Below are positions 273-16,422 of a DNA stretch of 53,730 nucleotides, piece after piece. The position numbers and the translations under genes are program-made. The notes under the pieces were generated by a model that saw only the letters and a program-made list of their open reading frames with translations, was not told the DNA's origin and did no database searches. Within the stretch, counting starts at the first letter, position 1, and every line of letters starts with the position of its first letter. This DNA comes from Arcobacteraceae bacterium (GTDB taxonomy: Bacteria > Campylobacterota > Campylobacteria > Campylobacterales > Arcobacteraceae), in the NCBI GenBank assembly GCA_048268245.1, contig JBLWVX010000016.1, positions 1 through 53,730 of the forward strand, read 5' to 3'.

Positions 273-2249
273 CTAATCCATAGGTAAACTAATATAAAAC
301 TTAGCCCCATTATCTGTATTCTTCACATAAATATCACCATTTAAACTTTTTGTGACTATATTGTAACTCATATACAATCCTAATCCAGTACCTAATGACT
401 CATGCTTAGTTGTAAAATAAGGTTCAAAAATATTTTCTCTAATACCAATAGGTATTCCACCTGCATTATCTTCTATTGTTATTATAATATTTTGTTCTTT
501 TAGAAATAAATCTATTTTTATATATGGAGATTCAATTTGTCTATCTATTAAAGCATCTTTTGCATTGGTAATAATATTTATAATAACTTGAGAAAGTTCT
601 CCTAGTATAATATTTTTATATATTGGTTTATCATAATTAATTTTCTTTACTAATTCTATGTTATTATCTTTTAATGTATTACTTACTATATCCAAAGCCA
701 TATCTATTCTATTTTGAATAATTACTTCTTTTTGTTCTTTCTGTTCTTTTAAAAAATTTCTAAAGGTATTAATCGTTTCTGATAAATAGTTTACATTTTT
801 TACTATAGAATCACAATATACAGGGATATCATTCTCTTCAATAGATTTTAATTCATTTTTCAACTTTAAACCACTAGCAGAAATACTAATAGTTGAAAGA
901 GGCTGTCTCCATTGATGGGCAATATGCCCAATCATTTCACCTAAAGAAGCCATTTTTGACTGATGTATTAGTTTCATTTGTTGTTCTTCTAATATTTTTT
1001 TTGCGGTGATATCTTGCTTTATAGAAAAATACCCTACTTTTTTACCATCTTTATCATATTCTGGTTCAATATTCAATGCAACCCAAAAAACCTTTCCATC
1101 TTTTCTTAAGTTTTTTAATTCACCATTCCATGATTTATTTGACTCCAATAGTTTCCACATATTTTCATAAACTGATTTACTAACTTTAGGATGCCTAACT
1201 ATACTATGAGGCTGTCCTATTAATTCTTCTTTTTTATAGCCAGAAACTTCACAAAATGCTTCACTGACTTCTTTTATTCTACCAGTTAAATCTGTTTTTG
1301 AATATACTATATACTTACTAATTAAATTAACATCTTTTTGTATATATTCTGTTTGTTCTTTAACTTTTATCTCTAATTGTTTATTTATATCTTCAAGCTC
1401 TTTTGGCTTATTTAAAAGTCTGTAAATGAAAAAACCAACCAACAGAGATAAAACAAAATTTAAAATATATAAAGTATTCATAAAAATATTTGAGATATAT
1501 GACCCTGTATATTCAATTTCAAGATACCATTTTGTATTAGGTAAATTTATTTCTTCTGTAAATACTTTTTGAGTGGTAAAGTTTTTTGTTCCAGCAAAGA
1601 TATCTATTTTTTTAGTATCAGGGTGAATTCTTTTTAATCGATAGTTATAGTTTTTATCTTTTAATTTTTCTAAATTTGTTGTTTGTATTAAGTCTTTTAA
1701 ATAAATCAAAGTAGAAGAAAATCCCCAAAATACATCATAATTATTCTTCTTTAAATAAATAGGGTTTCTAGCTATTATTGCAACTCCGCCCTGAATCAAA
1801 GTAAACGGTCCTGCAATTGTAAGTTCTTTTGATTTCTTTGCTATAAAAGCCTCTTTTTTTCTACTATCTGATTTAAATATATCATGTCCCAACGCTTTTT
1901 CATGACCATCTAATGGATATATTCTACTTACTATTCCATTTGGAGCTAATTGTAAGTTTGTTATACCTTGAAGTGAACTAAACAGCACATGAGAAAATTT
2001 TTCAAAGTATTGCATACTTCCATTTACACTCTCTATATGTTTTCCAAGAATTTTTGCACTTGCAGTACTTTTCTTAATACTTCTTTCTAGGACTAATGAT
2101 TGAGAACTAAGAATCTGTTTAGATAGCTTATCAATATTGCTTTCCATTGAATAACTATTATTTTTGAGTAAATAAATACCTGTAATCATTAAAGTAATTG
2201 TAATTAAAGTAGATACTAATAACTCTATTCTAAACATTTTATACCTCAT
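273..2249 (-). CDS. CHASE-PAS sensor histidine kinase (no cognate regulator adjacent in window)
   Basis: N-terminal TM, CHASE-like segment (LQLAPNGIVSRIYP...AGPFTLIQGG...FWGF), second TM, PAS (SKTDLTGRI...FCEVSGY...HP), H-box IAHQWRQPL, HATPase boxes (NAKDA, DNAGGI, GTGLGL). Confidence 0.88.
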   Translation of the reverse strand: MRYKMFRIELLVSTLITITLMITGIYLLKNNSYSMESNIDKLSKQILSSQSLVLERSIKKSTASAKILGKHIESVNGSMQYFEKFSHVLFSSLQGITNLQLAPNGIVSRIYPLDGHEKALGHDIFKSDSRKKEAFIAKKSKELTIAGPFTLIQGGVAIIARNPIYLKKNNYDVFWGFSSTLIYLKDLIQTTNLEKLKDKNYNYRLKRIHPDTKKIDIFAGTKNFTTQKVFTEEINLPNTKWYLEIEYTGSYISNIFMNTLYILNFVLSLLVGFFIYRLLNKPKELEDINKQLEIKVKEQTEYIQKDVNLISKYIVYSKTDLTGRIKEVSEAFCEVSGYKKEELIGQPHSIVRHPKVSKSVYENMWKLLESNKSWNGELKNLRKDGKVFWVALNIEPEYDKDGKKVGYFSIKQDITAKKILEEQQMKLIHQSKMASLGEMIGHIAHQWRQPLSTISISASGLKLKNELKSIEENDIPVYCDSIVKNVNYLSETINTFRNFLKEQKEQKEVIIQNRIDMALDIVSNTLKDNNIELVKKINYDKPIYKNIILGELSQVIINIITNAKDALIDRQIESPYIKIDLFLKEQNIIITIEDNAGGIPIGIRENIFEPYFTTKHESLGTGLGLYMSYNIVTKSLNGDIYVKNTDNGAKFYISLPMD

Positions 2250-2402
2250 TTAATAAAATTACTTTTTTATATAGTACACAAAATAATATAAATTTTACAT
2301 TTTATTTTTTCATTATAAATGAAGTATATTTAACTATATAGTAAGTGAATTAATAAAGTCTTAGTTAATGTTGGATTGGATTATTGTTTAAATTTTATAA
2401 GA

Positions 2403-2433
2403 GGATTGTTTGAAAATAAATGGAGGAGCTAGT
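2403..2433. repeat. att core, tRNA-distal copy (GGATTGTTTGAAAATAAATGGAGGAGCTAGT)
   Basis: 31-bp exact match to 7906-7936; contains the reverse complement of the last 13 nt of tRNA-Cys (ACTAGCTCCTCCA) plus 18 nt of downstream flank. Confidence 0.95.
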
Positions 2434-2810
2434 TTTCCTCTATAAACAACAAACAAAGTCCTATTTTAAGGGGTTTATAAATTTTAACTTCTTAAATATT
2501 CCTTAAATTTAAACAAGTGAAAAGATAGAAACTATTTTTATTTTTGTAAATAATTAGTTCTTTTTCTGTCTAAATCATATACTGTATTTACTTAAAATTT
2601 CATAATATTTTATATTTATCATTCCTACTCTTGAAATACATTAAAAAATTTCTTATATTTTAAATATGAAAGGTTTGTAGTTAAATAAACACAACTAAAA
2701 AAAAGAAAAATACTTAATTTCTGTAAGAGAATATAACTTAATAAATAGAACCTAACTTGAAGACTTACAGTTAATTACCTCCTTTCAATTTTCATACTAA
2801 AAAATGGAGA

Positions 2811-3929
2811 TTGAAATTGTTAATATCATTTTCTAAATCATTACAAAACTCTAAACTTGAAAAAGAGTATAAAGAAATAAAAAAAGATTGTATTTTACAT
2901 AGTTTTAAAAAAGAGAAATCTGTAAATAACTTCACTAAAAAGTTAAATGTATTAAATAAAAAAACTGGTGAATATACTAATTTAGATAATTCATATATGA
3001 ATGGAATAAATAAAAGAAGTCATAATAATTTACAAAAAACATTAACTATTGAAAAAATAGCACTTGAAAAAGGATTAGTTCCTATTTATATAACTTTGAC
3101 TTTACCATCAAAATTTCATCCATTTTCAAGTAAAACTTTAAAAAATAGAATTGTGTTTTTTAGAAATAAAAACTTTGAATATGAAACTATTAAACAATCA
3201 ATAAAAGATGGATATACACTTTTGAATAAGATACATAGACACTACTATAAAAGATTAAAAAAGTTAGATAGTGAATTGTATTATATTAATTCAACTGAAT
3301 ATCATAAAAGTTTTATTCCTCATACTCATTTATTAATATTTGTAAAACCTGAACTTGTTGAAGAAGTTGAAAATATATTTAAACAACTAAAAAAGTTTTA
3401 TAAACTTTCTAAAACAGATTTTCAAATAATAGATAATGAATTTAATGTTGAAATTGTTTCTTCTTATATTAGAAAATATATGTTTAAAAATTTAATTTTA
3501 AATGATGATGATACAAAAACAAAATCTAATAAACTAACAAGAAATAGGATTTATTTAGGTTATTGTTCTATCTTTAAAATAAGACAATTTAAAATGAATA
3601 ATCTAAAACTTTCTCTTGATATATACAGTAAAGTTTATTACTCATTAAATAAAGATTTTAAAGAAAAAATCATTGAAGAAATCACACCATTAAAAAAATG
3701 TTTGTTTCAATTTATTATGGAAAATATAAAAGTTAAAAAAAGAGTTTTTAATGCTGATACTAACAAAAATGTATTTACTCAATTTTCATTAAGTCAGTCA
3801 AAAAAGATATTTGAAGTATTTGTAGAAACTGTTAAAAGTTCAAACACTTCAAAAGTTGTCAATTTTCTAATTTATCAAAATGGAAAATTAATATATAACA
3901 AAAAAGACTTTGAAGTCTTACAAATTTAA
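2811..3929 (+). CDS. HUH rolling-circle replication initiator, P2 gpA (Phage_GPA)-like
   Basis: Motif I YITLTLPSKFHP, motif II EYHKSFIPHTHLLI (HUH), motif III SYIRKY (two Tyr), and downstream IRQFK resembling the IRQFQ motif of P2 A-like proteins. Start uncertain: TTG 2811 or TTG 2817 (better spaced from GGAG). Confidence 0.85.
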   Translation: MKLLISFSKSLQNSKLEKEYKEIKKDCILHSFKKEKSVNNFTKKLNVLNKKTGEYTNLDNSYMNGINKRSHNNLQKTLTIEKIALEKGLVPIYITLTLPSKFHPFSSKTLKNRIVFFRNKNFEYETIKQSIKDGYTLLNKIHRHYYKRLKKLDSELYYINSTEYHKSFIPHTHLLIFVKPELVEEVENIFKQLKKFYKLSKTDFQIIDNEFNVEIVSSYIRKYMFKNLILNDDDTKTKSNKLTRNRIYLGYCSIFKIRQFKMNNLKLSLDIYSKVYYSLNKDFKEKIIEEITPLKKCLFQFIMENIKVKKRVFNADTNKNVFTQFSLSQSKKIFEVFVETVKSSNTSKVVNFLIYQNGKLIYNKKDFEVLQI

Positions 3930-3943
3930 AGGTAAAAAAACAG

Positions 3944-4207
3944 ATGTATTCACAAATTAAAATAGTTGGAAGCGTGCTAAAAGTATTAAAAAAAGAATTT
4001 GAAGGAAAAGAAAGTTATCAAATTCAAATGATGTTAAATTCTCCTAAAAAGGGATTTGAAGTTGTAAGTATAAAAATTGAAAAAGATTTTTATACTTCAG
4101 ATATTAAAGAGTCAATGAATGTTGAAATCCCTATTTCAATATCAACTTATCAAGGTAATCTATTCTTTACTTGTATTGATAAAATTAAAATCATCAATAA
4201 AGGATAA
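3944..4207 (+). CDS. Small beta-rich protein, probable OB-fold ssDNA-binding protein
   Basis: 87 aa, alternating beta-strand pattern with exposed aromatics, AAAGGT RBS, directly after an RCR initiator, where such elements typically encode an SSB. Function inferred. Confidence 0.55.
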   Translation: MYSQIKIVGSVLKVLKKEFEGKESYQIQMMLNSPKKGFEVVSIKIEKDFYTSDIKESMNVEIPISISTYQGNLFFTCIDKIKIINKG

Positions 4208-4210
4208 GAT

Positions 4211-5473
4211 TTGTATTTATTAATAGAATTTCTAAAAAGTTTTCTTTTTAGAAGTTTTATAATTGTTGGTTCTTTTTTATTAGTAGATATTTATTATAAA
4301 AATATAGAGGATAATATTTTATTATTTTTACTTGCTATATTGTTTGTTGAAAGAGTTATATATTTTATAAAGTATTTTAGATATATCAATTTACCATATT
4401 CATTAAGTTTATCTCAATCAGCAAAAGATGATTTAAAATTTAGAAGTTTCTTTGTTGATAAGTTTGTATCAAAAAAACAAAATAGGTTTAAAAGTTTAAT
4501 TGAAAAAGTTGTTTGTAAAGATTTAAATTCATTTCAATTAGAGTATAAAAACTATATATCAATGGAAACAGATAATTATAGAAATAAATTAAATCAAATA
4601 GTTCATTATTTAGGATTGATAAAAGAGAACTATGAAGTTAAAGTTTATGAATATAAAAACAAAAAAGTATTATTGAATTTTTATAAATTACCTGAATTTT
4701 ATGATATTTCATTTGAGTTATTAAAAAAAGATTTTTTCTTTTTAGGGATATATGAAAAAGGTTTATATTATAAAGATATAAATACATTAGACCATTTACT
4801 TTGTATTGGAAAGTCAGGTTCAGGAAAATCTAACTTTTTACAACTAATCATTTTATTCAATTTTAGTAAGTTTAAAAAACTTTATATGATTGATTTAAAA
4901 GGTGGGGTTGAATTAAAATCCTATGAGAATATAGATAAGGAAAAAATTGAATTTATTAGCTCAGTAGAGGAATTGAATAATATATTAGATTTAGTTTTAG
5001 AAGATTTAAAATCTACTCAAAAAGAGATGATTGAAAAAAAGGTTAGAAAACTAACTGATTATAGAATAATTTTATTTGATGAATTTGGAGCCATTTCAAG
5101 TTATCCTGATAAAAAGTTAAGGGACCAGGTATTTAATAAGTTATCTTTAATATCAATGCAGGGAAGAAGTTCAGGGATATTATTGTTTTTATTTGGTCAA
5201 AAGATTGATACTACAATTTTACCCAGTGGAATTACAAACAATTTACAAAGTAGGATATTAGGAAAAACTTCAAATGATTACAATATTAATATTATTGATT
5301 TAAAAGAAAATATTAGGGAAAGAATTACAAGGGTTGAAGTTCAAGATTTTAAAAAAGGAAGATTTATTTTTAAAGATGGATTAACAAGTGAGAAAAATTT
5401 AATTCAAGTTCCATACGTGCCTGATGATTTTTTACACTCATTTTTAAAATCAGAGATTTATTGTTTTTTATAA
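4211..5473 (+). CDS. Membrane-anchored FtsK/SpoIIIE-family ATPase (TcpA/TraB-like DNA translocase or coupling protein)
   Basis: Two N-terminal TM helices; Walker A GKSGSGKS; IDLKGGVEL; Walker B IILFDEF; QGRSSGI...Q (GR motif plus conserved Gln). TTG start with AGGA RBS. Confidence 0.88.
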   Translation: MYLLIEFLKSFLFRSFIIVGSFLLVDIYYKNIEDNILLFLLAILFVERVIYFIKYFRYINLPYSLSLSQSAKDDLKFRSFFVDKFVSKKQNRFKSLIEKVVCKDLNSFQLEYKNYISMETDNYRNKLNQIVHYLGLIKENYEVKVYEYKNKKVLLNFYKLPEFYDISFELLKKDFFFLGIYEKGLYYKDINTLDHLLCIGKSGSGKSNFLQLIILFNFSKFKKLYMIDLKGGVELKSYENIDKEKIEFISSVEELNNILDLVLEDLKSTQKEMIEKKVRKLTDYRIILFDEFGAISSYPDKKLRDQVFNKLSLISMQGRSSGILLFLFGQKIDTTILPSGITNNLQSRILGKTSNDYNINIIDLKENIRERITRVEVQDFKKGRFIFKDGLTSEKNLIQVPYVPDDFLHSFLKSEIYCFL

Positions 5474-5484
5474 ATTAATGAGTG

Positions 5485-5916
5485 TTAGAATTTATCTAAC
5501 AACTCATTTCTTTTTTTATCATATTCATCTTTTGTTATAAGTTTAGACTTATATAATTTATTTAATTCTTCTATTTTTTTAGATAAATTATCACTATCAA
5601 GTACTATAATTTTTTGTTCAGTTGGTATAAGATTATTATTACACTCAAATCTAACTATCCATTTAGGCCAAATTGCAAATCCTGCTGGAATAAAGTCTTT
5701 ACTGATTGGATGATAATTTTTATTCATACTTTTACACTTTTTTTTAGCTTCCTCAACAGCTTTTAAATAAATTGCTTGTGGCTGAGAAAAACCTGTATTT
5801 CCTTCAACTTCAATTTCATATTGATTAGCATAACCAGTAGAAGTTAAAGACTTCACTTTTTGACCACAACCAGTGATAAATATTAAAATTAATACCATTA
5901 GTAATTTTATTTTCAC
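5485..5916 (-). CDS. Lipoprotein with C-terminal SHOCT-like domain
   Basis: Signal peptide with lipobox ITGC; two further Cys; C-terminus IEELNKLYKSKLITKDEYDKKRNELL fits the SHOCT pattern. Confidence 0.75.
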   Translation of the reverse strand: MKIKLLMVLILIFITGCGQKVKSLTSTGYANQYEIEVEGNTGFSQPQAIYLKAVEEAKKKCKSMNKNYHPISKDFIPAGFAIWPKWIVRFECNNNLIPTEQKIIVLDSDNLSKKIEELNKLYKSKLITKDEYDKKRNELLDKF

Positions 5917-5981
5917 AAGAATACCTTTATAATTTATTAAATTAGTCTAACACAATTAAAATTACTTTTTTATTAATATGA

Positions 5982-6010
5982 ATGAAATATAATCTTTGAT
6001 TATATTTCAT
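5982..6010. repeat. Perfect 13-bp inverted repeat downstream of the integrase
   Basis: ATGAAATATAATC-TTT-GATTATATTTCAT; role (terminator, operator or origin hairpin) unknown. Confidence 0.7.
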
Positions 6011-6049
6011 ACTTGTCTTACTTAATAAAAAGTGTCATATTATTTTATA

Positions 6050-7783
6050 CTAATAAATTTTTAAATCTAAAATTCTATTTGATACAACTTTTAAATTATC
6101 CATAATATCTTCAATATATAACTTTTCAATCTCTTTTTGTAATCTCATTAATTCACAAGTTATATATCTCTTATAAGACATTGTATTTTGTTTATGACCT
6201 GATAATCCATTAATTAATGCTTCTTCAACTTCTCCCATATGTAATCTTGTTATAAATGTAGTTCTTAAACTATGAAAATCAATTTTATTTAGTTCTAAAT
6301 CTTCCTCTGTTAAAAACTGTGTTTTTAATCTATTAAATACTTTACTTACAGATGCACCATAACCATTTGACATATGTTTTTTATCCTCTAAATCAGGGAA
6401 CAATAAAGAATTATTAGATAACTTATTAACATAATCTAAAATCTTTAATTCATTGATTAAAAATGAATGAATAGGAACTTTTCTATTTCCTTTTTTACTT
6501 TTAATATTTCTTGAATTATTATCTCTAATACTAAAATAAAATATCCCATTTTCATCTTTAACATCTTCTTTTCTTAAACCACATAATTCATTTAGTCTTG
6601 TTCCAGTAAATAAAGTAATTAAAGGAACTAAAAATATACTTGGTTGATTATGATAAATATCTCTAATTTTAAATATATCACACTCTAAAAACATTCTATT
6701 TAATTGATATGAGGTTATTATAGTTCTCTCTTTTTCTTCAAGAGAGAATTGTCTAATAGTATTATTTCCATACTCTTCTAAATCACTCAAATAATTTGTT
6801 TTTATATACTTCTTTGTAAGACAATAATTAAAGAAAGTTCTTGCTCTACCTACCTTTTCTTCAAGTGTAGAACAAGTTTGAGGAACGTACTTTCCTGATT
6901 TTTTACTTTCCTCAATAATTTTCCTACACTCTAATGGATATTTATTAAAAAAAGATTTGGCTTTTATACCATTTGGAGCTTCTACAATTTGATAAAAAAT
7001 CTCATCAAAATCTTCTTCTGTATAATCCTCAAAATATACTTTATCATTTACATTTTCAATAATGTTTAAAACACTTTCATATTTACTTTTATAATTTTTT
7101 TTATTTCTTTGTTTATTTTTATAATGTTCTTTTCTATTATTTAAAATTTCAACTTTTGTTTTAGTTGTTAAAAGTTTTGGTTCTTCTTCAATTGGAATAT
7201 ATTGAATATTAGATGTTTGATAATCAGAAGAAAATCTCATTCTTGTTCTATTTAAATCCTTTCTTATTATCTCACCCTCTTTTTTAATTAGTTTAGTCAT
7301 AAACTTATAAATATCAGGTTTTGAAGTAAGTGTTTTAAAATAGTCTTGAAGTTCAGGAGTTGTTCTTTTTAATAGTTTTCTGCCTTTATCAATAATCTTA
7401 TCTTGTTGAGTATCAAAAACTAAATCTTGAAATATTTTTAGGTTCTCTTCAATAGTATCAGGATGTCCTCCATCTTTTCCTTTACTTGATAAATCTTTAT
7501 GTCTTTTCTGTTCTAATATATCATCTTCAATTAATGCTAACTTTTGGTAATTATCTAATAATTCATTTACCTTGTGTAAATCTATCAAACTTATGCTCCT
7601 AAAAATATATTCTGTATTCTTTAAAAAACTACTTACAATTTTTTTACCTATTTTACAATTTTTAGTCTTCAATGAAAATTTATATATTCTATTTGTTTGT
7701 CTTATTCTTCTTACAAAATAATAGTATCCATATTCATTTTTTGACATATATTTTGGTAGTTGTTTTTTCTTAATTGTTTCCAT
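6050..7783 (-). CDS. Tyrosine recombinase / site-specific integrase
   Basis: Catalytic set R (TGTRLNEL), K (IKSKKG), HxxR (FHSLR), H (SGH), Y (SYKRY); N-terminal arm-binding-like segment (YYYFVRRI...FSLKTKN). Confidence 0.93.
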   Translation of the reverse strand: METIKKKQLPKYMSKNEYGYYYFVRRIRQTNRIYKFSLKTKNCKIGKKIVSSFLKNTEYIFRSISLIDLHKVNELLDNYQKLALIEDDILEQKRHKDLSSKGKDGGHPDTIEENLKIFQDLVFDTQQDKIIDKGRKLLKRTTPELQDYFKTLTSKPDIYKFMTKLIKKEGEIIRKDLNRTRMRFSSDYQTSNIQYIPIEEEPKLLTTKTKVEILNNRKEHYKNKQRNKKNYKSKYESVLNIIENVNDKVYFEDYTEEDFDEIFYQIVEAPNGIKAKSFFNKYPLECRKIIEESKKSGKYVPQTCSTLEEKVGRARTFFNYCLTKKYIKTNYLSDLEEYGNNTIRQFSLEEKERTIITSYQLNRMFLECDIFKIRDIYHNQPSIFLVPLITLFTGTRLNELCGLRKEDVKDENGIFYFSIRDNNSRNIKSKKGNRKVPIHSFLINELKILDYVNKLSNNSLLFPDLEDKKHMSNGYGASVSKVFNRLKTQFLTEEDLELNKIDFHSLRTTFITRLHMGEVEEALINGLSGHKQNTMSYKRYITCELMRLQKEIEKLYIEDIMDNLKVVSNRILDLKIY

Positions 7784-7905
7784 TTTGTTCCCAGTTTGTT
7801 ATCAAATGAAAAGAACTAATTGTTTTTTAGTTGAGAAATAGTCTATTTTTTAGTTAAATGTTAATATTTTAAGTTTTTTGATTATTTAAGAATACCATAA
7901 AAAGG

Positions 7906-7936
7906 GGATTGTTTGAAAATAAATGGAGGAGCTAGT
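7906..7936. repeat. att core, tRNA-proximal copy
   Basis: Exact copy of 2403-2433, overlapping tRNA-Cys at 7924-7936. Confidence 0.95.
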
Positions 7937-7999
7937 CGGACTCGAACCAACGCATACCGGATTTGCAATCCGGGGCATTACCAGCTTTGCTATAGCTCC
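7924..7999 (-). tRNA. tRNA-Cys(GCA)
   Basis: Acceptor GGAGCTA/TAGCTCC, anticodon arm CCGGA-TTGCAAA-TCCGG, GGTTCGAGTCC T-arm, U discriminator, encoded CCA. Confidence 0.97.
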
Positions 8000-8060
8000 A
8001 ATGTTAGAAAATCATTAACAATGATTAAAGTTAGATGATTTTGCTTGATTAAAAAAGAAG

Positions 8061-8149
8061 TGGCAGAGAGTGGGGGATTCGAACCCCCGGTGCCGTTAAG
8101 CACGCCGGTTTTCAAAACCGGTACTTTCGACCAACTCAGTCAACTCTCT
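8061..8149 (-). tRNA. tRNA-Ser(TGA)
   Basis: Acceptor AGAGAGT/ACTCTCT, anticodon arm CCGGT-TTTGAAA-ACCGG, long variable arm, GGTTCGAATCC, G discriminator, CCA. Confidence 0.96.
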
Positions 8150-8164
8150 ACAATTCTAAAAAAG

Positions 8165-8251
8165 TGGTGCGAATGGTGAGAATCGAACTCACACTCCGAA
8201 ACCGGAATGGGATTTTAAGTCCCACGCGTCTACCTATTCCGCCACACTCGC
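8165..8251 (-). tRNA. tRNA-Leu(TAA)
   Basis: Acceptor GCGAGTG/CATTCGC, anticodon arm TGGGA-CTTAAAA-TCCCA, long variable arm, A discriminator, CCA. Confidence 0.96.
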
Positions 8252-8308
8252 ACTTTTAAATTTAAGTTTTATCGGTTTTTGAAGCCGTTCTTCTTAAATT
8301 GGACTGGA

Positions 8309-8337
8309 ATTATAATAGATTTTTTTTTCTTTGTCAA
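8309..8337 (-). promoter_or_regulatory. Sigma70 promoter of the Leu-Ser-Cys tRNA operon
   Basis: Minus strand TTGACA (8337-8332), 17-nt spacer, TATAAT (8314-8309), then a relatively GC-rich discriminator TCCAGTCC. Confidence 0.88.
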
Positions 8338-8452
8338 GGGTTTTTCAAAAGAATTTCAAAATTTTTCAAAATTTAATGATTTTAATAGAAAATGAAAATC
8401 AATAAATGTATAATATCTACCATAAATATAAGAAGAATTTAAAGGATTATAA

Positions 8453-10141
8453 TTGAGAAGTAATGAGATAAAAAAAGGATATGATAGAACTCCACACAGG
8501 TCTTTATTAAGAGCTACTGGATTACAAGATGAGGATTTTGATAAACCATTTATTGGTGTAGCAAACTCTTTTATTGAACTTATCCCTGGACACTTCTTTT
8601 TAAATAAAGTTGGTGAGATTATAAAAGATGAAATTAAAGCAAATGGTTGTGTTCCATTTGAGTTTAATACAATTGGTGTTGATGATGGTATTGCTATGGG
8701 TCATGATGGTATGTTATTTTCATTACCTTCAAGAGAATTAATTGCAAACTCAATTGAAACTGTAATGAATGCACATAAACTAGATGCAATGATTGCTATT
8801 CCAAACTGTGATAAAATTGTACCAGGTATGATTATGGGTGCATTAAGAGTTGATGTTCCAACTGTATTTGTATCAGGTGGACCAATGGAAAAAGGTTATA
8901 CACAAGATGGTAAACCTATTGACTTAGCTACTGCTTTTGAAGCTGTAGGAAAACACGAATCAGGTGAGATGAGTGATGAAGAGTTAAAAGATATCGAATG
9001 TAATGCCTGTCCAAGTGGTGGTTCATGTTCTGGTATGTTTACAGCAAACTCTATGAATACACTTATGGAAGCTATGGGTATTGCTCTTCCTGGAAATGGA
9101 ACAATCTTAGCTTTAACTCCTGAGAGAGAAGAGTTATATAGACAAGCAGCTAGAAGAATTTGTGAAATTGCAAAAGATGAGAAAGCAAGAGAAGATTACA
9201 AATTAAAAAATATTTTAAATGAAAATGCAGTTAGAAATGCTTTTGCTGTAGATATGGCAATGGGTGGATCTTCTAATACGGTATTACACATGTTAGCAAT
9301 TGCTAAAGAAGCTGGTGTTAACTTTAACTTAGAAGATATTAACTCTATTTCTAAAAGAGTTTCACATATTGCTAAAATCTCTCCATCATTATCTACTGTA
9401 CATATGGAAGACATCAACAAAGCTGGTGGTGTAAATGCAGTAATGAAAGAGATGTCAAAAAGAGGTGATGATATTTTGCTTGACAATCCAACTATTGGTG
9501 GGATTTCTACTTTAGAAAAAATCAAAGACTCTGAAATTAAAGATACAAATATTATTCATACTGTTGATAACCCATATTCAGAAGTTGGTGGATTAGCTAT
9601 TTTATACGGTAACTTAGCGCAGCAAGGTGCTGTTATTAAAACTGCTGGTATTACTGGTGATAGAGTATTTACAGGTAAAGCTGTATGTTTTGATGGACAA
9701 CCAGAAGCAATCGCTGGAATCGTTGGTGGAAAAGTTAAAGCTGGTGATGTTGTTGTTATTAGATACGAAGGTCCTAAAGGTGGTCCTGGTATGCAAGAGA
9801 TGCTAGCTCCTACTTCACTTATCATGGGTATGGGACTTGGTGATAAAGTTGCATTAATTACTGATGGTAGATTCTCAGGTGCTACAAGAGGTGCAAGTAT
9901 TGGTCACGTATCTCCTGAAGCTGCTGAAGGTGGAATGATTGGATTACTAAAAGATGGTGATGAAATTCACATCGATGTTGACCAATATATCTTATCTGTA
10001 AACTTAACAGATGAAGAAATCGCAAAAAGAAAAGCTGAATTTACTCCTCTTAAAAAACCTCTTAACTCTTCTTGGTTAGGACAATATAGAGCACTTGTAA
10101 CAAATGCAAGTTCTGGAGCAGTTTTAAAAACTGACTTATAA
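8453..10141 (+). CDS. ilvD: Dihydroxy-acid dehydratase
   Basis: [52 protein letters not shown] motifs; TTG start with AAGGA RBS. Confidence 0.97.
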
Positions 10142-10145
10142 TCAC

Positions 10146-10172
10146 TAAAACTAGGGCTTTGCCTTAGTTTTA
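10146..10172 (+). terminator. Probable intrinsic terminator after ilvD
   Basis: TAAAACTAGGGC-TTT-GCCTTAGTTTTA stem-loop right after the stop. Confidence 0.7.
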
Positions 10173-10259
10173 AGTATTAACTATTTATTAACTATTTATT
10201 GAAAAATAGTTTACAAACCTACCCTACAATTGTATTATCAAAATTCGAAAGGATGAATT

Positions 10260-11678
10260 GTGAAGAAAAAACTTTTATTCGCCTCAGCAATGATTGCAAG
10301 TCAATTATTTGCCCAATCAATTGACTTTGAAATGATGAATAAAAACCCTCAAAGAGTGGTTCCTAATTCTACTACTGAAATATTCTCATTTAATAAAAAT
10401 ATTGAAAGTTCTATGCATTCAGTAGTAAATATATCAGCAAAAAGACATGTAAGTACAAATGTAAATAATTTACCATTGGAAATGTTCAACGACCCATTCT
10501 TCAAAAGATTTTTTGGAGAGCAGTTTGGGAATCAATTTAGACAAAACAGAATACAGCGTTCTCTTGGTTCTGGTGTAATTGTTTCTAAAGATGGATACAT
10601 AGTAACAAATAACCATGTAATAGAAAATGCAGAAGAAATCACTGTAACAATAGGTGATGACACAACGGAATACAATGCAAAACTAATTGGAAGAGATGCT
10701 GATAGTGACTTAGCAGTTATTAAGATCGAAGGTAAAGATTTAGAACCAATGAAACTTGGAGATTCAACTTCTTTAAAAGTTGGTGATGTAATTTTTGCTA
10801 TGGGTAATCCATTTGGTATAGGAAGTACAGTAACTCAAGGTATCATTTCTGCTCTTAACAAAAATAAAGTTGGTATCAATAGATATGAAAACTATATTCA
10901 AACAGATGCTTCTATAAACCCTGGAAATTCAGGTGGTGCCTTAATAGACTCAAGAGGTGCTTTAATAGGTATTAATACTGCTATTTTATCAAAAAGTGGT
11001 GGTAACAATGGAATTGGTTTTGCTATTCCTGTAAACATGGTGAAAGATGTAGTTAAAAAACTTGTAGCAGATGGTAAGGTAACTAGAGGTTACTTAGGTG
11101 TTGCTATTGGTGATTTAGATAAAGACTTATCTAAAGTTTATAACCATAAAAAAGGTGCTTTAGTTCTTGATGTATCACCAGGAACTCCTGCTGAAAAATA
11201 TGGTATTAAAAGAGGTGACTTAATTTACTCTATTAATGGTAAGAAAATCACAGATAGAACTTCTTTACAAAATGTTGTAGCTTCATTTAAACCTAAACAA
11301 AAAGTTACAATTTCCCTTGAAAGAGATAGAAAAAACTTAGAACTTGATATAGTTTTAGGAAATAGAGAATCACTAATAAAAATCTCTTCAAATAATAGTA
11401 AAGTTCTTGGCGGATTAAGACTGAAAAATATCGATATGAATATTAAAAAGCAATATAGACTTCCATTGAGTGCTCAAGGTATCCTAATCTCAGATGTTGA
11501 ACCAAAATCGAAAGCTGAAAAAACAGGTTTCCAAGCAGGTGATATTATTATCCAAATTGAAGATATTGAAATCAAAGACTTTGGTGATGTGGAAAAAGCT
11601 TTAAGTAAGTATAATAAAAAACACAAAAGAGTTTATGTAAATAGATATGGTCAAACAATTCTATTTGTAATTAAATAA
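10260..11678 (+). CDS. htrA: Periplasmic serine protease HtrA/DegP family
   Basis: Signal peptide; TNNHV, DLAVIK, INPGNSGG catalytic motifs; two PDZ domains; GTG start. Confidence 0.95.
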   Translation: MKKKLLFASAMIASQLFAQSIDFEMMNKNPQRVVPNSTTEIFSFNKNIESSMHSVVNISAKRHVSTNVNNLPLEMFNDPFFKRFFGEQFGNQFRQNRIQRSLGSGVIVSKDGYIVTNNHVIENAEEITVTIGDDTTEYNAKLIGRDADSDLAVIKIEGKDLEPMKLGDSTSLKVGDVIFAMGNPFGIGSTVTQGIISALNKNKVGINRYENYIQTDASINPGNSGGALIDSRGALIGINTAILSKSGGNNGIGFAIPVNMVKDVVKKLVADGKVTRGYLGVAIGDLDKDLSKVYNHKKGALVLDVSPGTPAEKYGIKRGDLIYSINGKKITDRTSLQNVVASFKPKQKVTISLERDRKNLELDIVLGNRESLIKISSNNSKVLGGLRLKNIDMNIKKQYRLPLSAQGILISDVEPKSKAEKTGFQAGDIIIQIEDIEIKDFGDVEKALSKYNKKHKRVYVNRYGQTILFVIK

Positions 11679-11690
11679 AAAGGATTCGTC

Positions 11691-12377
11691 ATAATTAAAG
11701 TACTAATGATAGAAGATGATTTAGAGTTAGCTCAAATCATCACTGATTATCTAGCCTCATTTGATATAGAAGTGACAAATACAGATAGCCCTTACAATGG
11801 GCTATCAATGTTAAGTATAGATAAGGATTATAAACTCCTTATCTTAGACTTGACACTTCCTGAAATTGATGGTTTAGAATTAATCCCTAAAATCAGAGAA
11901 AAGAGTGAAATACCTATTATTATCTCAAGCGCAAGAGATGATATTTTAGACAAAGTTATGGGATTAGAAAGAGGTGCAGATGATTATCTTCCAAAACCAT
12001 ATAACCCAAGAGAACTTCAAGCTAGGATCAAAACTATTTTAAAAAGAGTTGACACAAATACAGCTGATGTGAGAAGTGATGTAAAAGCAACAAACTCTGT
12101 ATTTGAAATAAAAGAAGATGATATGCAAATCAACTTTAAAAACAATGCTTTGACTTTAACTCTAGCAGAGTATGACATCTTAAAACTTCTTATTCAAAGA
12201 AATGGTGGTGTTGTATCAAGAGAAGATTTTATTTATGCTAGTGACCATATTGAAGATGATTCATCACTAAAAAATATTGATGTAATTATTTCAAGAATTA
12301 GAACAAAATTAGCAAAACTAGATGATACTCAAACATATATCAAATCAGTAAGAGGTATTGGGTATAAGTTAATATGA
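11691..12377 (+). CDS. cprR: OmpR-family response regulator, CprR-like (probable ATA start at 11691; first ATG at 11706)
   Basis: KVLMIEDD, LILDLTLP, ADDYLPKPY, C-terminal wHTH (SVRGIGY); the htrA-RR-HK order matches C. jejuni htrA-cprR-cprS. Confidence 0.82.
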   Translation: MIKVLMIEDDLELAQIITDYLASFDIEVTNTDSPYNGLSMLSIDKDYKLLILDLTLPEIDGLELIPKIREKSEIPIIISSARDDILDKVMGLERGADDYLPKPYNPRELQARIKTILKRVDTNTADVRSDVKATNSVFEIKEDDMQINFKNNALTLTLAEYDILKLLIQRNGGVVSREDFIYASDHIEDDSSLKNIDVIISRIRTKLAKLDDTQTYIKSVRGIGYKLI

Positions 12378-13606
12378 CAAAAAATATCTCTATTTCTGCA
12401 TTTATAAATATCATTTTTTCTTTAGCTTTTATAGCTGTTATGATTACCTTTGCGTTATTTGTTAGATTTGATCAGCAAAGACATGAAATAACACTACAAA
12501 ACAGATATGAACTAATTGCAGAGAACTTTTTAAGTGCCTTTCAAAACCAACCAACAGTTGAAACACTTGAAAATCTTTTTAAAAAATTTAAAGTAGAACC
12601 AATAAAAAAAAGAGATGCCAAGCTTGAAATCATCAAACAAGCACAAGAACTTACAATCACACAAAACTATTTAGGAACATATAGAGTTTATAAGTACGAT
12701 GAGAATTATTATATTTATGTACAGCAGTATGGATATAATATCATGCTAAAAGACATAAGAAATCATAACTATAATGTAGCTATTATAATCCTAGCTATGG
12801 TTTTATCTTTAGTAACTTTACTATTTTTATATGTAACTTTGAAAAGAAAGCTACTTCCTTTAAAACTTTTAAATAAACAAATCATAGAGTTTTCAAATGG
12901 CAAAAAAGATGTGAAAATCAAAAGTGTAAGTAATGATGAAATAGGAACTATTGCAAAAAGCTTTAATGAAGCCGTAACAATCATAAGTAATCAAACAAAA
13001 TCAAAAGATTTATTTATGAGAAATATGATGCATGAACTTAAAACTCCTATTACAAAGGCTATGTTTATTGCTGAGACCTTAGAAGATGATAAAGCAAGAC
13101 AAAACTTGCAAAAAGCATTTAAAAGAATGGATGATATTATCAAAGAACTTGCAACAGTTGAGAAAATCACTTCTCAAAATAGAGTTGTGTATAAAGAACT
13201 AACATCTTTCTTTAATATCTACAATAAAACTTTAGAAATCATGATGATAAACCCTGAAAACATTACTTCAAAGATTAGAGACTTTAAATTTGAGGTTGAT
13301 ACATATATGTTTTCTATCGTCTTAAAAAATCTTATAGATAATGCTATAAAATTCTCTCCAAATAAAAAAGCAATAATAAATGCTTCAAAAGAGCAAATCA
13401 TAGTAAGCTCAAAAGGTGAGCCTTTAAAACATGAACTTGAGTACTACACAGAAGCTTTTTGTCAAGAAGAAAAAAGAAGTGATGGATTTGGTCTGGGACT
13501 TTATATAGTTAAAACTATTGTAAATCTACATGGATATAAATTGAAATATTTCTACAAAGATGAAAAAAATCACTTTGTAATAGACATGAAAAAAGAGAAG
13601 AGTTAA
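12374..13606 (+). CDS. cprS: Sensor histidine kinase, CprS/ArsS-like
   Basis: Two TMs, HAMP, MHELKTP H-box, NLIDNAIK, GFGLGL; 4-nt overlap with the regulator. Confidence 0.8.
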   Translation: MTKNISISAFINIIFSLAFIAVMITFALFVRFDQQRHEITLQNRYELIAENFLSAFQNQPTVETLENLFKKFKVEPIKKRDAKLEIIKQAQELTITQNYLGTYRVYKYDENYYIYVQQYGYNIMLKDIRNHNYNVAIIILAMVLSLVTLLFLYVTLKRKLLPLKLLNKQIIEFSNGKKDVKIKSVSNDEIGTIAKSFNEAVTIISNQTKSKDLFMRNMMHELKTPITKAMFIAETLEDDKARQNLQKAFKRMDDIIKELATVEKITSQNRVVYKELTSFFNIYNKTLEIMMINPENITSKIRDFKFEVDTYMFSIVLKNLIDNAIKFSPNKKAIINASKEQIIVSSKGEPLKHELEYYTEAFCQEEKRSDGFGLGLYIVKTIVNLHGYKLKYFYKDEKNHFVIDMKKEKS

Positions 13607-14031
13607 TCCTCTTCTCTTACATCTTTCATAACTTCAAACCAATCTCTTGAAAACTTGTTTTTAATATACTTTTCCCTATGAGGAACTATACATCCTGAAC
13701 AATTTTGATGAATATAATCTTCACCAATATACTGAGCCCCATCTTTTGAGTTAATACCACATTTTGAGAAAAGTGTCTTCCCATCAACTTTCTCAAAACC
13801 ATCCATTTTAAATCTAAAATTAGGACAGGCACATAAATAACAGTTTAAATCTTCATAATCATGGCATTTCTTATTGTCTTTATATAAAGGACAAAAGTCT
13901 GGTTCATTTTTAACCATGTTATCAAATCTAAAGTACTCTATTACCTCATCTATTGATTTATCTTCTAATTTTTTCATTACATTTGCGTGTAGTTTACCTT
14001 GTTGGTTAAACCACTCTTCATAAGTCATCAT
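13603..14031 (-). CDS. Cysteine-rich small-domain protein (zf-like family seen in cobalamin clusters)
   Basis: FCPLY..KCH...LNCYLCACP...NCSGCIVPH; translationally coupled to cbiB. Confidence 0.65.
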   Translation of the reverse strand: MMTYEEWFNQQGKLHANVMKKLEDKSIDEVIEYFRFDNMVKNEPDFCPLYKDNKKCHDYEDLNCYLCACPNFRFKMDGFEKVDGKTLFSKCGINSKDGAQYIGEDYIHQNCSGCIVPHREKYIKNKFSRDWFEVMKDVREED

Positions 14032-14915: not shown

Positions 14916-16296
14916 TCTGCTCTATCCTCTTTACATCAAGTCTACTTTTCATCTCACCTATAAAAGCATCTAAAGTATCTTTTTTATACTTATCAAACGA
15001 GTAGCCTATATATTGGCTATTTATACTCTTGAAGTATTTAGTTCTAAAAGCATCATTATCAAAAATACCATGAACAAATGTACCTTTAAAATTATCTTTT
15101 TCATAAGATAAAGGATATTTATCACTCATACCATGATGTATCTCAAAACCTTTGATACTCTCTCCAAAAAGCTCATAACTTTGTTTCTTTAAAACTTTTT
15201 TCTTTTCAAAAACTATATTTGAAGGTATTACACCAAAACCCTCTTCCACTAAAGGTTCACTATTTTCTAAAGCATACTTATCATCAAGTGTTTCAAACAT
15301 CATTTCATATCCACCACATATGGCACAAATATGACCTTTGTAGTTTTGTATTTGCTCATATAAGCCCATATCTTTTAACCACTTTAAATCTTTGATTACA
15401 AGCTTAGAACCAGGTAATACAACTAAATCAAACTTTTCTAGTGAGATATTATGGTTTACAAACTCTACAAATACCTCATCATCTGCTATTAAAGGCTCTA
15501 TGTCATTGTAGTTACTCATATATGGATATGATATAACTGCTATATCTAGTTTTTTGTTTTTTGGCTTTTGAATGAAGTTTTGTAAAGATGCACTATCTTC
15601 AAAACCTAAATTAAATGGAATATAAGGTAATACTCCTAAAACTGGTATTTTAAACTCTTCTTTGATGATTCTAACACCCTCATCAAATAAAGTTAAATCT
15701 CCCCTAAATTTATTTACAATAACCCCTACTACATTCTCTCTTAGTTTAGGAGGTAATAAGTGATAAACTCCATAAATAGAAGCAAAAACACCACCCTTTT
15801 CTATATCTGCTACTAGTATAATCTTTGTATTGTATTCATCTGCAATAAAAATATTTGATAAGTCTTTATCCATAAGATTTAGTTCCACAGGACTTCCAGC
15901 ACCCTCACTTACAACAACATCATACTTTTCATCTAAATACTCATAACATCTCTTAACAGCAGGCTTTAAAAGGTCTAAATCTCTATAATACTCTCTTACA
16001 TCTTTGTTTGTAACTACTTGACCTTCTACTATAAGTGAAGCAGAGTTTCCCCTACCTGATTTTAAAAGAACAGGGTTTAGATGATAAGAAGTTTCAACTT
16101 CTAAAACTTCACTTTGAAAGTATTGAGCTATTGCTATTTCACTTCCATCATCACATACATGTGAGTTATTTGAGACATTTTGAGCTTTAAAAGGAGCTAC
16201 ACTATAACCTAAGTCTTGAAGTATTTTTGCTATTACAAAAGTGATAGTTGATTTACCAGCATCTGAGCTAGTTCCGAAGATAGAGATATTTTTCAT
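14905..16296 (-). CDS. cobQ: Cobyric acid synthase (CobQ/CbiP)
   Basis: GTSSDAGKS, PFKAQNVS, EGAGSPVELNL, GATase motifs ICGGY and GFEIH. Confidence 0.95.
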   Translation of the reverse strand: MKNISIFGTSSDAGKSTITFVIAKILQDLGYSVAPFKAQNVSNNSHVCDDGSEIAIAQYFQSEVLEVETSYHLNPVLLKSGRGNSASLIVEGQVVTNKDVREYYRDLDLLKPAVKRCYEYLDEKYDVVVSEGAGSPVELNLMDKDLSNIFIADEYNTKIILVADIEKGGVFASIYGVYHLLPPKLRENVVGVIVNKFRGDLTLFDEGVRIIKEEFKIPVLGVLPYIPFNLGFEDSASLQNFIQKPKNKKLDIAVISYPYMSNYNDIEPLIADDEVFVEFVNHNISLEKFDLVVLPGSKLVIKDLKWLKDMGLYEQIQNYKGHICAICGGYEMMFETLDDKYALENSEPLVEEGFGVIPSNIVFEKKKVLKKQSYELFGESIKGFEIHHGMSDKYPLSYEKDNFKGTFVHGIFDNDAFRTKYFKSINSQYIGYSFDKYKKDTLDAFIGEMKSRLDVKRIEQSVL

Positions 16297-16422
16297 TTTA
16301 TTCCTGCGATTATATTTTGTGACATTATAGTAAAAATAAAATTAGAGTAATCGAGGAATAAAAAGAAGTATATCAAAACATAAAAACATTTTGGTTACGC
16401 AGTTTGTATAATAAATAGTTTT

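Follow-up and report, generated by a model that had tools for sequence, protein, structure and literature searches.

The window analysed here is a 53,730-nt stretch of DNA from an Arcobacteraceae bacterium (assembly GCA_048268245.1, contig JBLWVX010000016.1, positions 1 to 53,730 of the forward strand). At positions 2403-7936 it holds a compact integrative element at the 3' end of a tRNA-Cys gene. Three of its genes, encoding a rolling-circle initiator (Rep), a small OB-fold protein and a TcpA-like ATPase, recur as a linked trio in related elements of the Campylobacterota.

Anatomy of the element

The element is bounded by two copies of a perfect 31-bp direct repeat, attL at 2403-2433 and attR at 7906-7936, which are spaced 5503 bp apart and give the element a size of about 5.5 kb. 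The repeat search returned a 35-nt direct pair (2399-2433 and 7902-7936) with a single mismatch at its 5' edge, so that the perfect core is 31 bp, and this was the sole long near-perfect direct pair among the repeat families listed for positions 1500-9500. The integration target, tRNA-Cys(gca), was placed by ARAGORN on the minus strand at 7924-7999, and the right repeat therefore takes in the final 13 nt of the tRNA, CCA among them, and 18 nt past the tRNA's 3' end. The tRNA-Cys gene is thereby kept intact by the repeat and is followed by genes for tRNA-Ser and tRNA-Leu. A first-pass annotation, made by a model from the sequence alone, had reported perfect att repeats at this tRNA gene, and the repeat search and ARAGORN both agree with it on their positions. 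The element has a G+C fraction of 0.18-0.24, low relative to its flanks (0.23-0.28 to the left, 0.31-0.37 toward the tRNA and ilvD).

Five substantial open reading frames (ORFs) lie between the repeats, and every other ORF of at least 20 aa is nested or short. Three genes on the plus strand are separated by gaps of 14 and 3 nt, and the other two are on the minus strand. None of the element proteins matched a type IV secretion system (T4SS) or capsid family in Pfam or PHROGs, which together with the ORF survey upholds the initial description of five genes lacking both functions. In DNA this rich in A+T, scanning for promoters and terminators gave no useful information (53 found vs 50.2 expected).

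The first plus-strand gene (2811-3929) encodes Rep, a protein of 372 aa. Rep matched the Pfam family Phage_GPA (3.7e-14) and phrog_91, “nicking at origin of replication” (1.6e-16), fell just below the Pfam cut-off for REP_ORF2-G2P (7e-6; 26.7 bits vs 27.8), and is 26% identical to P2-type phage gene A over residues 41-287. The FxTxT (T95/T97), H171-x-H173 and Y219-x-x-K222-Y223 motifs were invariant in all 11 aligned sequences, namely nine relatives, the window Rep and that of an inovirus-like prophage from the same genome. These profile matches and the invariant HUH and YxxKY motifs confirm the earlier call of an HUH rolling-circle Rep and, judged from sequence, Rep is a two-tyrosine HUH initiator of the P2 gpA / phiX174 A superfamily without a helicase domain. 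This HUH protein of a rolling-circle replication (RCR) initiator family is the only candidate relaxase of the element, and the MobP relaxase is absent from the genome. The Rep start is ambiguous by two codons, as translation may begin at TTG 2811 or at the in-frame TTG 2817; a GGAG at 2806-2809 lies 1 nt from the former and 7 nt from the latter, which is the better spaced.

The second gene (3944-4207, plus strand) encodes an 87-aa protein that belongs to no family in Pfam, PHROGs or NCBIfam. Its AlphaFold2 model, built from a 27-row alignment, is a small all-beta domain with a pLDDT of 90.7, and the top Foldseek matches of this model were PriB, bacterial and mitochondrial single-stranded DNA (ssDNA)-binding proteins (SSBs), Rim1 and the OB domains of RPA (TM 0.60-0.79 against the PDB, E from 4.9e-4). 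Searched as a profile against 1.84 billion representatives, the protein had 122 relatives, mostly of 70-110 aa and all unnamed. Pfam revealed nothing meaningfully recurring among 27 members of the family at E up to 10, and no family in the 57 distant relatives scanned. The nearest named ESM-Atlas cluster, “Putative_G5P” (score 0.90, 166 shared features), serves as a lead only. The predicted structure supports an SSB/PriB-like OB domain at the level of the fold, with putative ssDNA binding. Hence, of the original designation of this protein as an SSB, the fold stands, as the PriB and SSB matches support it, and the ssDNA-binding function is not thereby borne out. A complex prediction of ATPase residues 66-420 with the OB-fold protein gave a score of 0.01, which speaks neither for nor against binding.

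The third gene (4211-5473, plus strand) encodes a 420-aa ATPase of the FtsK/SpoIIIE family (Pfam FtsK_SpoIIIE, 2e-10; phrog_1358, 4.7e-36), in which Walker A (G200..GKSN208) and D290-E291 are invariant in 15/15 sequences. Its sequence profile matched FtsK (1.1e-13) and the coupling protein TcpA of plasmid pCW3 (4e-13, query residues 164-409) among PDB entries. The model (pLDDT 84.6) found TcpA as its top Foldseek match (E 5.2e-22; TM 0.63/0.72 to 6o1z), the alignment spanning about 390 columns and including the domain that precedes the ATPase core; further matches were the FtsK motor (4e-17), EssC/EccC, HerA and the STIV2 packaging ATPase. Two long N-terminal helices (residues ~2-29 and 34-54) are hydrophobic in sequence. 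TcpA likewise has two N-terminal hydrophobic helices. The model ends about 20 residues past the ATPase core and has no TraB- or FtsK-gamma-like DNA-recognition extension. The first-pass annotation of an FtsK/TcpA-like ATPase with two transmembrane segments agrees with these data, TcpA being the best structural match and FtsK following it. The protein has the traits of a TcpA-type coupling protein, being FtsK-like and predicted to be membrane-anchored, and the N-terminal hydrophobic helices and the TcpA-like predicted fold point to a membrane translocase.

The gene adjoining the tRNA (6050-7783, minus strand) encodes a tyrosine recombinase of 577 aa (Phage_integrase, 5.5e-13; phrog_1, 4.4e-23), a full-length ORF that was rightly described as an apparently intact integrase. 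The locus accordingly combines a site-specific recombinase gene with flanking att repeats at a conserved target. Homologues of 605-623 aa are encoded in four related loci (L027, L028, L029 and L031).

Between the ATPase and integrase genes lies a 143-aa ORF (5485-5916, minus strand) that starts with MKIKLLMVLILIFITGC; this was taken for a signal peptide with an ITGC lipobox, consistent with the one lipoprotein noted at first. It has a weak C-terminal SHOCT match in Pfam (3.1e-5, below the cut-off) and no homologue in 10 related elements. In a close variant of the element from metagenome run X5 of another study, positions 5462-6011, the lipoprotein region, are swapped for 1882 other bases. This replacement identifies the gap between the ATPase and integrase genes as a cargo slot and the putative lipoprotein as its present occupant.

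Relatives among the Campylobacterota

ATPase homologues were present in 18 of the 184 genomes of the host's family. In all ten loci with full-length homologues, which came from nine genomes, the Rep, OB-fold and ATPase genes were found in the same order and orientation. Another 34 eligible loci were taken from GTDB genomes and JGI metagenomes (ATPase identity of at least 30%, at least 1.6 kb of upstream DNA), with Arcobacteraceae, Sulfurimonas and related metagenome-assembled genomes as sources. Thirty of them had Rep and a small ORF upstream, 2 had only Rep by threshold and 2 had neither, one of the latter carrying Rep downstream instead. This second arrangement was also seen in L033:8566-11238, L146 and L153, where the Rep homologue comes after a related ATPase gene (34-37% identity) and a small OB ORF was not detectable in between.

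The trio is syntenic in four families of the phylum, with ATPase identities of 33-63% across the trio loci. An even sample of the phylum gave 9 positive genomes out of 401 (ATPase E <=1e-30), in four families, and the two largest families sampled were negative (0/118 and 0/158). Every named source among 129 protein matches is a member of the Campylobacterota (Arcobacter, Aliarcobacter, Malaciobacter, Halarcobacter, Sulfurospirillum and Sulfurimonas), as are the best genome loci with the exception of a 4.9-kb contig that was binned as Bacteroidales. Malaciobacter canalis, Arcobacter defluvii and a Sulfurospirillum sp. are among the relatives named by source. The junction between integrase and tRNA-Cys is spanned, at about 95% identity, by a contig from a third study. 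Many Helicobacter pylori and other gastric Helicobacter (L056-L117) have an FtsK-like gene that is 25-28% identical over ATPase residues 191-412, a longer match than the stretch of residues 190-332 found for Neisseria and Kingella in the same search.

Five relatives could be delimited by direct repeats of 18-22 bp, which overlap a tRNA gene in each case and do so at its 3' end in four. These relatives measure 5.8-9.8 kb and are located at tRNA-Arg (L024, L030 and L032), tRNA-Met (L026) and tRNA-Leu (L027); two other relatives abut tmRNA. Their integrases fall into two size classes, of about 387 aa with an HTH_17 excisionase-like neighbor or of 577-623 aa, and small HTH_3 regulators are carried as well. 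No T4SS, capsid, tail or coat family was found among the 56 accessory ORFs of relatives that were scanned.

The cargo of the relatives includes a TIR-domain protein, AbiEii, AbiTii (in two elements), GmrSD, a BsuBI/PstI restriction-methylase pair, SocA/Panacea, MerT-HMA with ArsR and an insertion sequence, outer-membrane protein (OMP) beta-barrels and Sel1 repeats. In one case (L028:11072-13982) it combines an ArsR-type regulator with a MerT-HMA fusion, a zinc-binding protein resembling CopZ and a transposase of the Mutator family. A single genome carries the trio at two sites (L025 and L026); the copies are 90.5% identical, though only over the 2864 bp of the trio, and differ in integrase, target and cargo (AbiEii/AbiTii vs OMP barrel and HTH_3). 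On this sequence comparison, the pair points to module shuffling around a constant core.

Since the relatives share four core genes and vary in cargo, the window element represents a minimal form with four core genes and one cargo gene. The intact trio is patchily distributed and found with different tRNAs and integrases and twice in one genome, a pattern that implies repeated horizontal movement. As judged from gene content and boundaries, the element is a complete member of an integrative family (5.5-10 kb) of environmental Campylobacterota and not a fragment. The first-pass annotation had proposed a search for syntenic relatives in this phylum, and the trio is indeed retained in 10/10 family loci and 30/34 further loci. 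It had also considered that such relatives might be truncated pieces of a prophage, plasmid or integrative and conjugative element (ICE), which does not apply to the five delimited relatives, as these are complete and tRNA-bounded.

The non-coding leader of 377 bp at 2434-2810 (plus strand), 5' of Rep, is a candidate regulatory or origin region. It has no ORF of at least 30 aa and no significant fold (z = 0.92), and no direct-repeat family was found in 2400-2830, so that clt-like repeated 8-mers are lacking. A GTCCGATT motif is located 44-55 nt 5' of the Rep start in 8 of the 10 family loci and in 10 of 31 further loci, which include some duplicates of the family loci. In one subclade (L023-L031 and 10 further loci) the G+C-containing form (A/C)GTCCGATT stands at a fixed distance before Rep, and a short hairpin with compensatory variation between its arms often comes after it. 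The window leader holds AGTCCTATTT at 2457-2466, one mismatch from the subclade motif, in a position beside attL and 354 nt upstream of Rep. The GTCCGATT motif has 3 matches in the whole window vs 2.04 expected. From its sequence and placement, the motif may be a promoter or operator element more so than an origin.

Host genome and the proposed export of DNA

We consider it fairly probable that this is an integrative element of the kind seen among RCR-type integrative and mobilizable elements (IMEs) and the integrative and conjugative elements of actinomycetes (AICEs), in which the ATPase acts as a DNA-export or coupling motor. Within this reading, export that depends on a helper is held somewhat likelier than export without one. 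The location at the tRNA-Cys 3' end, between identical 31-bp repeats and beside an intact integrase, and that of the relatives at tRNA-Arg, tRNA-Met, tRNA-Leu and tmRNA, form its starting point. The integrase would excise the element as a circle, and the two-tyrosine HUH Rep would nick an origin and drive rolling-circle replication, as expected from their families. The displaced single strand would be coated by the OB-fold protein, in keeping with its fold. A membrane-anchored ATPase ring could then pump the Rep-primed DNA from the cytoplasm, as suggested by its likeness to TcpA and FtsK and by the strict linkage of the three genes, and Rep might also take the part of the relaxase, in line with a proposal made for streptococcal IMEs with an RCR-type relaxase and TcpA. 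Passage through the outer membrane and entry into a recipient may occur via the channel of a visiting conjugative element or by a T4SS-independent route. The slot between the ATPase and integrase genes carries cargo, here the lipoprotein and in relatives defense, toxin-antitoxin (TA) or metal-resistance genes. A precedent exists in streptococcal IMEs, where RCR-type relaxases are found together with TcpA, and their reviewers note that a TcpA coupling protein took part in all mobilizations known for relaxases of the RCR type (PMC5704250, PMC5357655).

Several observations weigh against this reading. The host genome, which is 99.3% complete in 57 contigs, has no match to VirB4 (PF03135), VirD4 (PF02534), the Firmicutes/Bacteroidetes-type VirB4 AAA_10 (PF12846) or MobP (PF03432). 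VirB4 (PF03135) occurs in 12/184 genomes of the family and in only 2 of the 10 trio carriers (G010 and G041). PF12846 scored above cut-off in 6/184 genomes, among trio carriers only in G161 and there as a 68-residue stretch. On the markers PF03135, PF02534 and PF12846, a helper with mating-pair formation type FA (MPF-FA) compatible with TcpA was not found in the host genome or within the host range. The known partners of TcpA are MPF-FA systems of Firmicutes, which according to PMC5357655 have not been found in Gram-negatives. The window copy has no recognizable excisionase or regulator gene, and no origin or nick site was identified by searches for upstream motifs, folds and direct repeats. 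The binding of ssDNA by the OB-fold protein is putative, and the substrate of the ATPase is a prediction.

The same holds for excised forms. None of 65 contigs (L023, L038-L053 and L125-L172) had the terminal overlap of 15-300 nt that marks a circle. The attP and attB joints (7905 to 2434 and 2402 to 7937) were absent from the contigs of four runs over positions 1500-8800, although such contigs are a poor probe for rare forms and this absence is no evidence against excision; the joints that were listed had sides of 20-27 nt or replaced cargo. Of the initial reading as a whole, the anatomy and the comparisons therefore hold, and excision is still inferred, as no attP/attB junction was seen in the contigs. 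In three genomes of the same genus, the tRNA-Cys/Ser/Leu cluster is conserved (95-98% identity) and stands without an adjoining element, and in one of them a histidine-kinase homologue lies at most 1.5 kb from the tRNA. The left flank, which contains a histidine-kinase gene, was not conserved at the DNA level in 30 relatives. A precise attB in the same-genus genomes was rejected, since the intergenic DNA could not be aligned, and the difference amounts to an insertion polymorphism between species.

An inovirus-like prophage is located on contig C44 of the host genome (L037:6724-17022). It comprises an integrase gene (6724-7770), an excisionase-like and a ParB-like ORF, a 435-aa HUH Rep (9479-10786), a secretin-like ORF of 417 aa (11434-12687), a Zot ATPase (12608-13678), a 136-aa membrane ORF, a pIII-like ORF of 556 aa and four hydrophobic ORFs of 39-48 aa (15778-16384). 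A second Zot gene is found at C31:4669-5166. Convincing Zot matches (E below 1e-8) were obtained in only two of the ten trio carriers (G000 and G032). On these marker genes, the trio is not regularly accompanied by either a T4SS or an inovirus.

A viral or plasmid origin of the element was considered and rejected. IMG/VR gave 8 weak partial matches with at most 30% identity, except for 31-residue Walker A stretches, and the phage ATPase matches in GenBank, to FtsK-like genes of Bacillus and Staphylococcus phages, did not exceed 30% identity. In PLSDB, no Campylobacterota plasmid matched the ATPase or Rep. The ATPase hit 148 Firmicutes-dominated records there, all below 60% identity and none covering 80% of the query, with identities of at most 28% among the matches listed.

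Transfer that is wholly independent of a T4SS, of the AICE or Thermus “transjugation” type, in which an FtsK-like ring expels DNA that is taken up by a competent recipient or through cell-cell contact, seems to us an unlikely explanation. The host lacks T4SS markers, eight of the ten trio-bearing family genomes have no PF03135 VirB4, and the relatives have no constant content beyond the four conserved genes. The host has a ComEC homologue, but this is a weak pointer since the control search matched 10 of 14 genomes, i.e., the gene is nearly universal. Campylobacterota are often naturally transformable. As to precedent, in ICETh1 the membrane-bound hexameric ATPase TdtA is needed for donation and the recipient uses its competence system (PMC5365140), and AICEs need only TraB (PMC5365140, PMC2440964), insofar as the consulted portions of these papers describe them. 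On the other hand, a pump in the cytoplasmic membrane leaves the passage through the outer membrane unexplained, the ATPase has no TraB-like C-terminal DNA-recognition domain, and TdtA, described as HerA-like, has NurA and restriction genes beside it, which the window element lacks (PMC5365140). The bolder form of this proposal, to which we give a similarly low probability, is that the trio is a self-sufficient DNA donation machine of Gram-negatives, in which Rep would nick and pilot a single strand, the OB-fold protein would coat it, the ring would export it and competent neighbors would import it.

The two other explanations, a satellite of a filamentous phage and an island that does not transfer, are less likely than export. 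A non-transferring island, in which Rep and the OB-fold protein would only amplify the excised circle (e.g., under stress or phage attack) and the ATPase would serve maintenance, segregation or defense, is improbable. It would fit the mostly defense- and TA-related cargo of the relatives, the lack of a known exit channel in a host with no T4SS marker, the failure to recover a circular or extrachromosomal contig and the absence from PLSDB of a plasmid with a close ATPase homologue. It does not sit well with a trio that is intact and syntenic across four families at 33-63% ATPase identity, with the different tRNAs and integrases and the two copies in one genome, which imply repeated horizontal movement, or with the hydrophobic helices and TcpA-like fold that point to a membrane translocase. 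More improbable still is a derivative or satellite of a filamentous phage, with an inovirus-type Rep and a gene-V-like ssDNA-binding protein, that would be packaged and extruded by a resident inovirus. The same genome does contain the C44 prophage with Zot, the Rep of which is 28% identical to that of the element and has all catalytic motifs in common with it, the REP_ORF2-G2P match lies just under the cut-off, and the “Putative_G5P” cluster is the nearest to the OB-fold protein. The order of Rep followed by an SSB gene is that of the Ff phages, and RS1 and TLC are coat-less satellites. Yet neither a coat-like gene nor Zot was found in the element or 10 relatives, the ATPase is of the TcpA/FtsK type with its hydrophobic helices at the N terminus, and a DNA translocase has no evident use for a satellite. 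Zot is convincing in only two trio carriers, and no close relative was found among IMG/VR viral contigs. The comparison with a gpII-type Rep followed by a gene-V-type protein gave mixed signs, with the sub-threshold REP_ORF2-G2P score and the G5P lead on one side and an OB fold that matched SSB and PriB, not a listed gene V structure, on the other.

Comparison with known mobile elements

The full-text literature, from which subscription journals and supplementary files fall outside coverage, gave no paper that describes this gene set in Arcobacter or Campylobacterota, in line with the first-pass remark that the layout was not known to have been characterized in this phylum. The comparisons below refer to the accessible parts of the cited papers. 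The best structural match of the ATPase, TcpA of Clostridium perfringens pCW3 (PDB 6o1w-6o1z), is only 18-19% identical to it and acts together with a Gram-positive plasmid's MPF-FA apparatus, Tcp, partners of which were not found in the host genome. Like the gene A proteins of P2 and phiX174, the element Rep belongs to the Phage_GPA family and has the two-tyrosine YxxKY motif, but it has 372 aa compared with PHROG profiles of about 850 positions and is located in a non-viral integrative element.

AICE gene sets include spread (Spd) genes and Pif and Kor regulators. No Spd-, Pif- or Kor-like genes were found in the window element by Pfam and PHROGs, unlike in AICEs. Otherwise the resemblance is considerable, as pSAM2, SLP1 and pMEA300 are about 10 kb in size, use tRNA genes and combine integration and RCR functions with a single FtsK-like ATPase and no T4SS (PMC2440964). 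The hosts of AICEs are mycelial Gram-positive actinomycetes, whereas the window element resides in a member of the Campylobacterota and has a different Rep family, and AICE TraB has a C-terminal motif for recognition of clt (PMC5365140) that the window ATPase lacks.

With streptococcal IMEs (Coluzzi 2017, PMC5357655; Guedon 2017, PMC5704250), the element shares a compact layout, integration at a tRNA gene or gene end, a tyrosine integrase combined with an HUH Rep and a TcpA-like ATPase, the lack of its own mating-pore genes, and swappable modules. The RCR-type putative relaxases described there are Rep_trans/MobT, Rep_2, PHA00330 and Viral-Rep, and the Phage_GPA-type Rep is outside the families listed in PMC5357655. 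The element further differs in its Gram-negative Campylobacterota hosts, in the OB-fold protein as a fixed third member and in having no excisionase in the window copy. No MPF-FA helper type is known in such hosts from these sources and none was found in the host genome. Mobilization is a proposal for streptococcal IMEs and for the window element alike.

ICETh1 of Thermus thermophilus is likewise integrated at a tRNA gene between direct repeats and has a membrane-bound ATPase of the FtsK/HerA superfamily, TdtA, and no T4SS (PMC5365140). Its donor pushes DNA out, as may also be the case for the window element. In contrast, TdtA is HerA-like and its operon also encodes NurA, a restriction enzyme and a methylase, and ICETh1 is 14.9 kb in size, is reported not to replicate after excision and, in the account given there, has no Rep or OB-fold protein (PMC5365140).

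The design principle is thus already known from two Gram-positive settings, the AICEs and the streptococcal IMEs. What is new is that the hosts are diderm, that Rep is of the gpA type, that an OB-fold protein is a fixed partner and that the genomes concerned are mostly T4SS-free. A conserved and widespread trio in Gram-negatives raises the question of what a TcpA-like pump couples to without an MPF-FA channel, and either answer is useful, be it an unrecognized helper or T4SS-independent DNA donation in diderm cells. With four core genes, these elements are small enough for clean genetics. As they carry anti-phage, TA and metal-resistance cargo in the Arcobacter group, they are of importance for how genes move through marine, shellfish and wastewater habitats. 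If the trio were indeed a self-sufficient donation machine, it would constitute a third mode of conjugation in diderms, where push-pull transfer has so far been shown only in Thermus, and elements of 5-10 kb would ferry defense genes among marine and sediment Campylobacterota.

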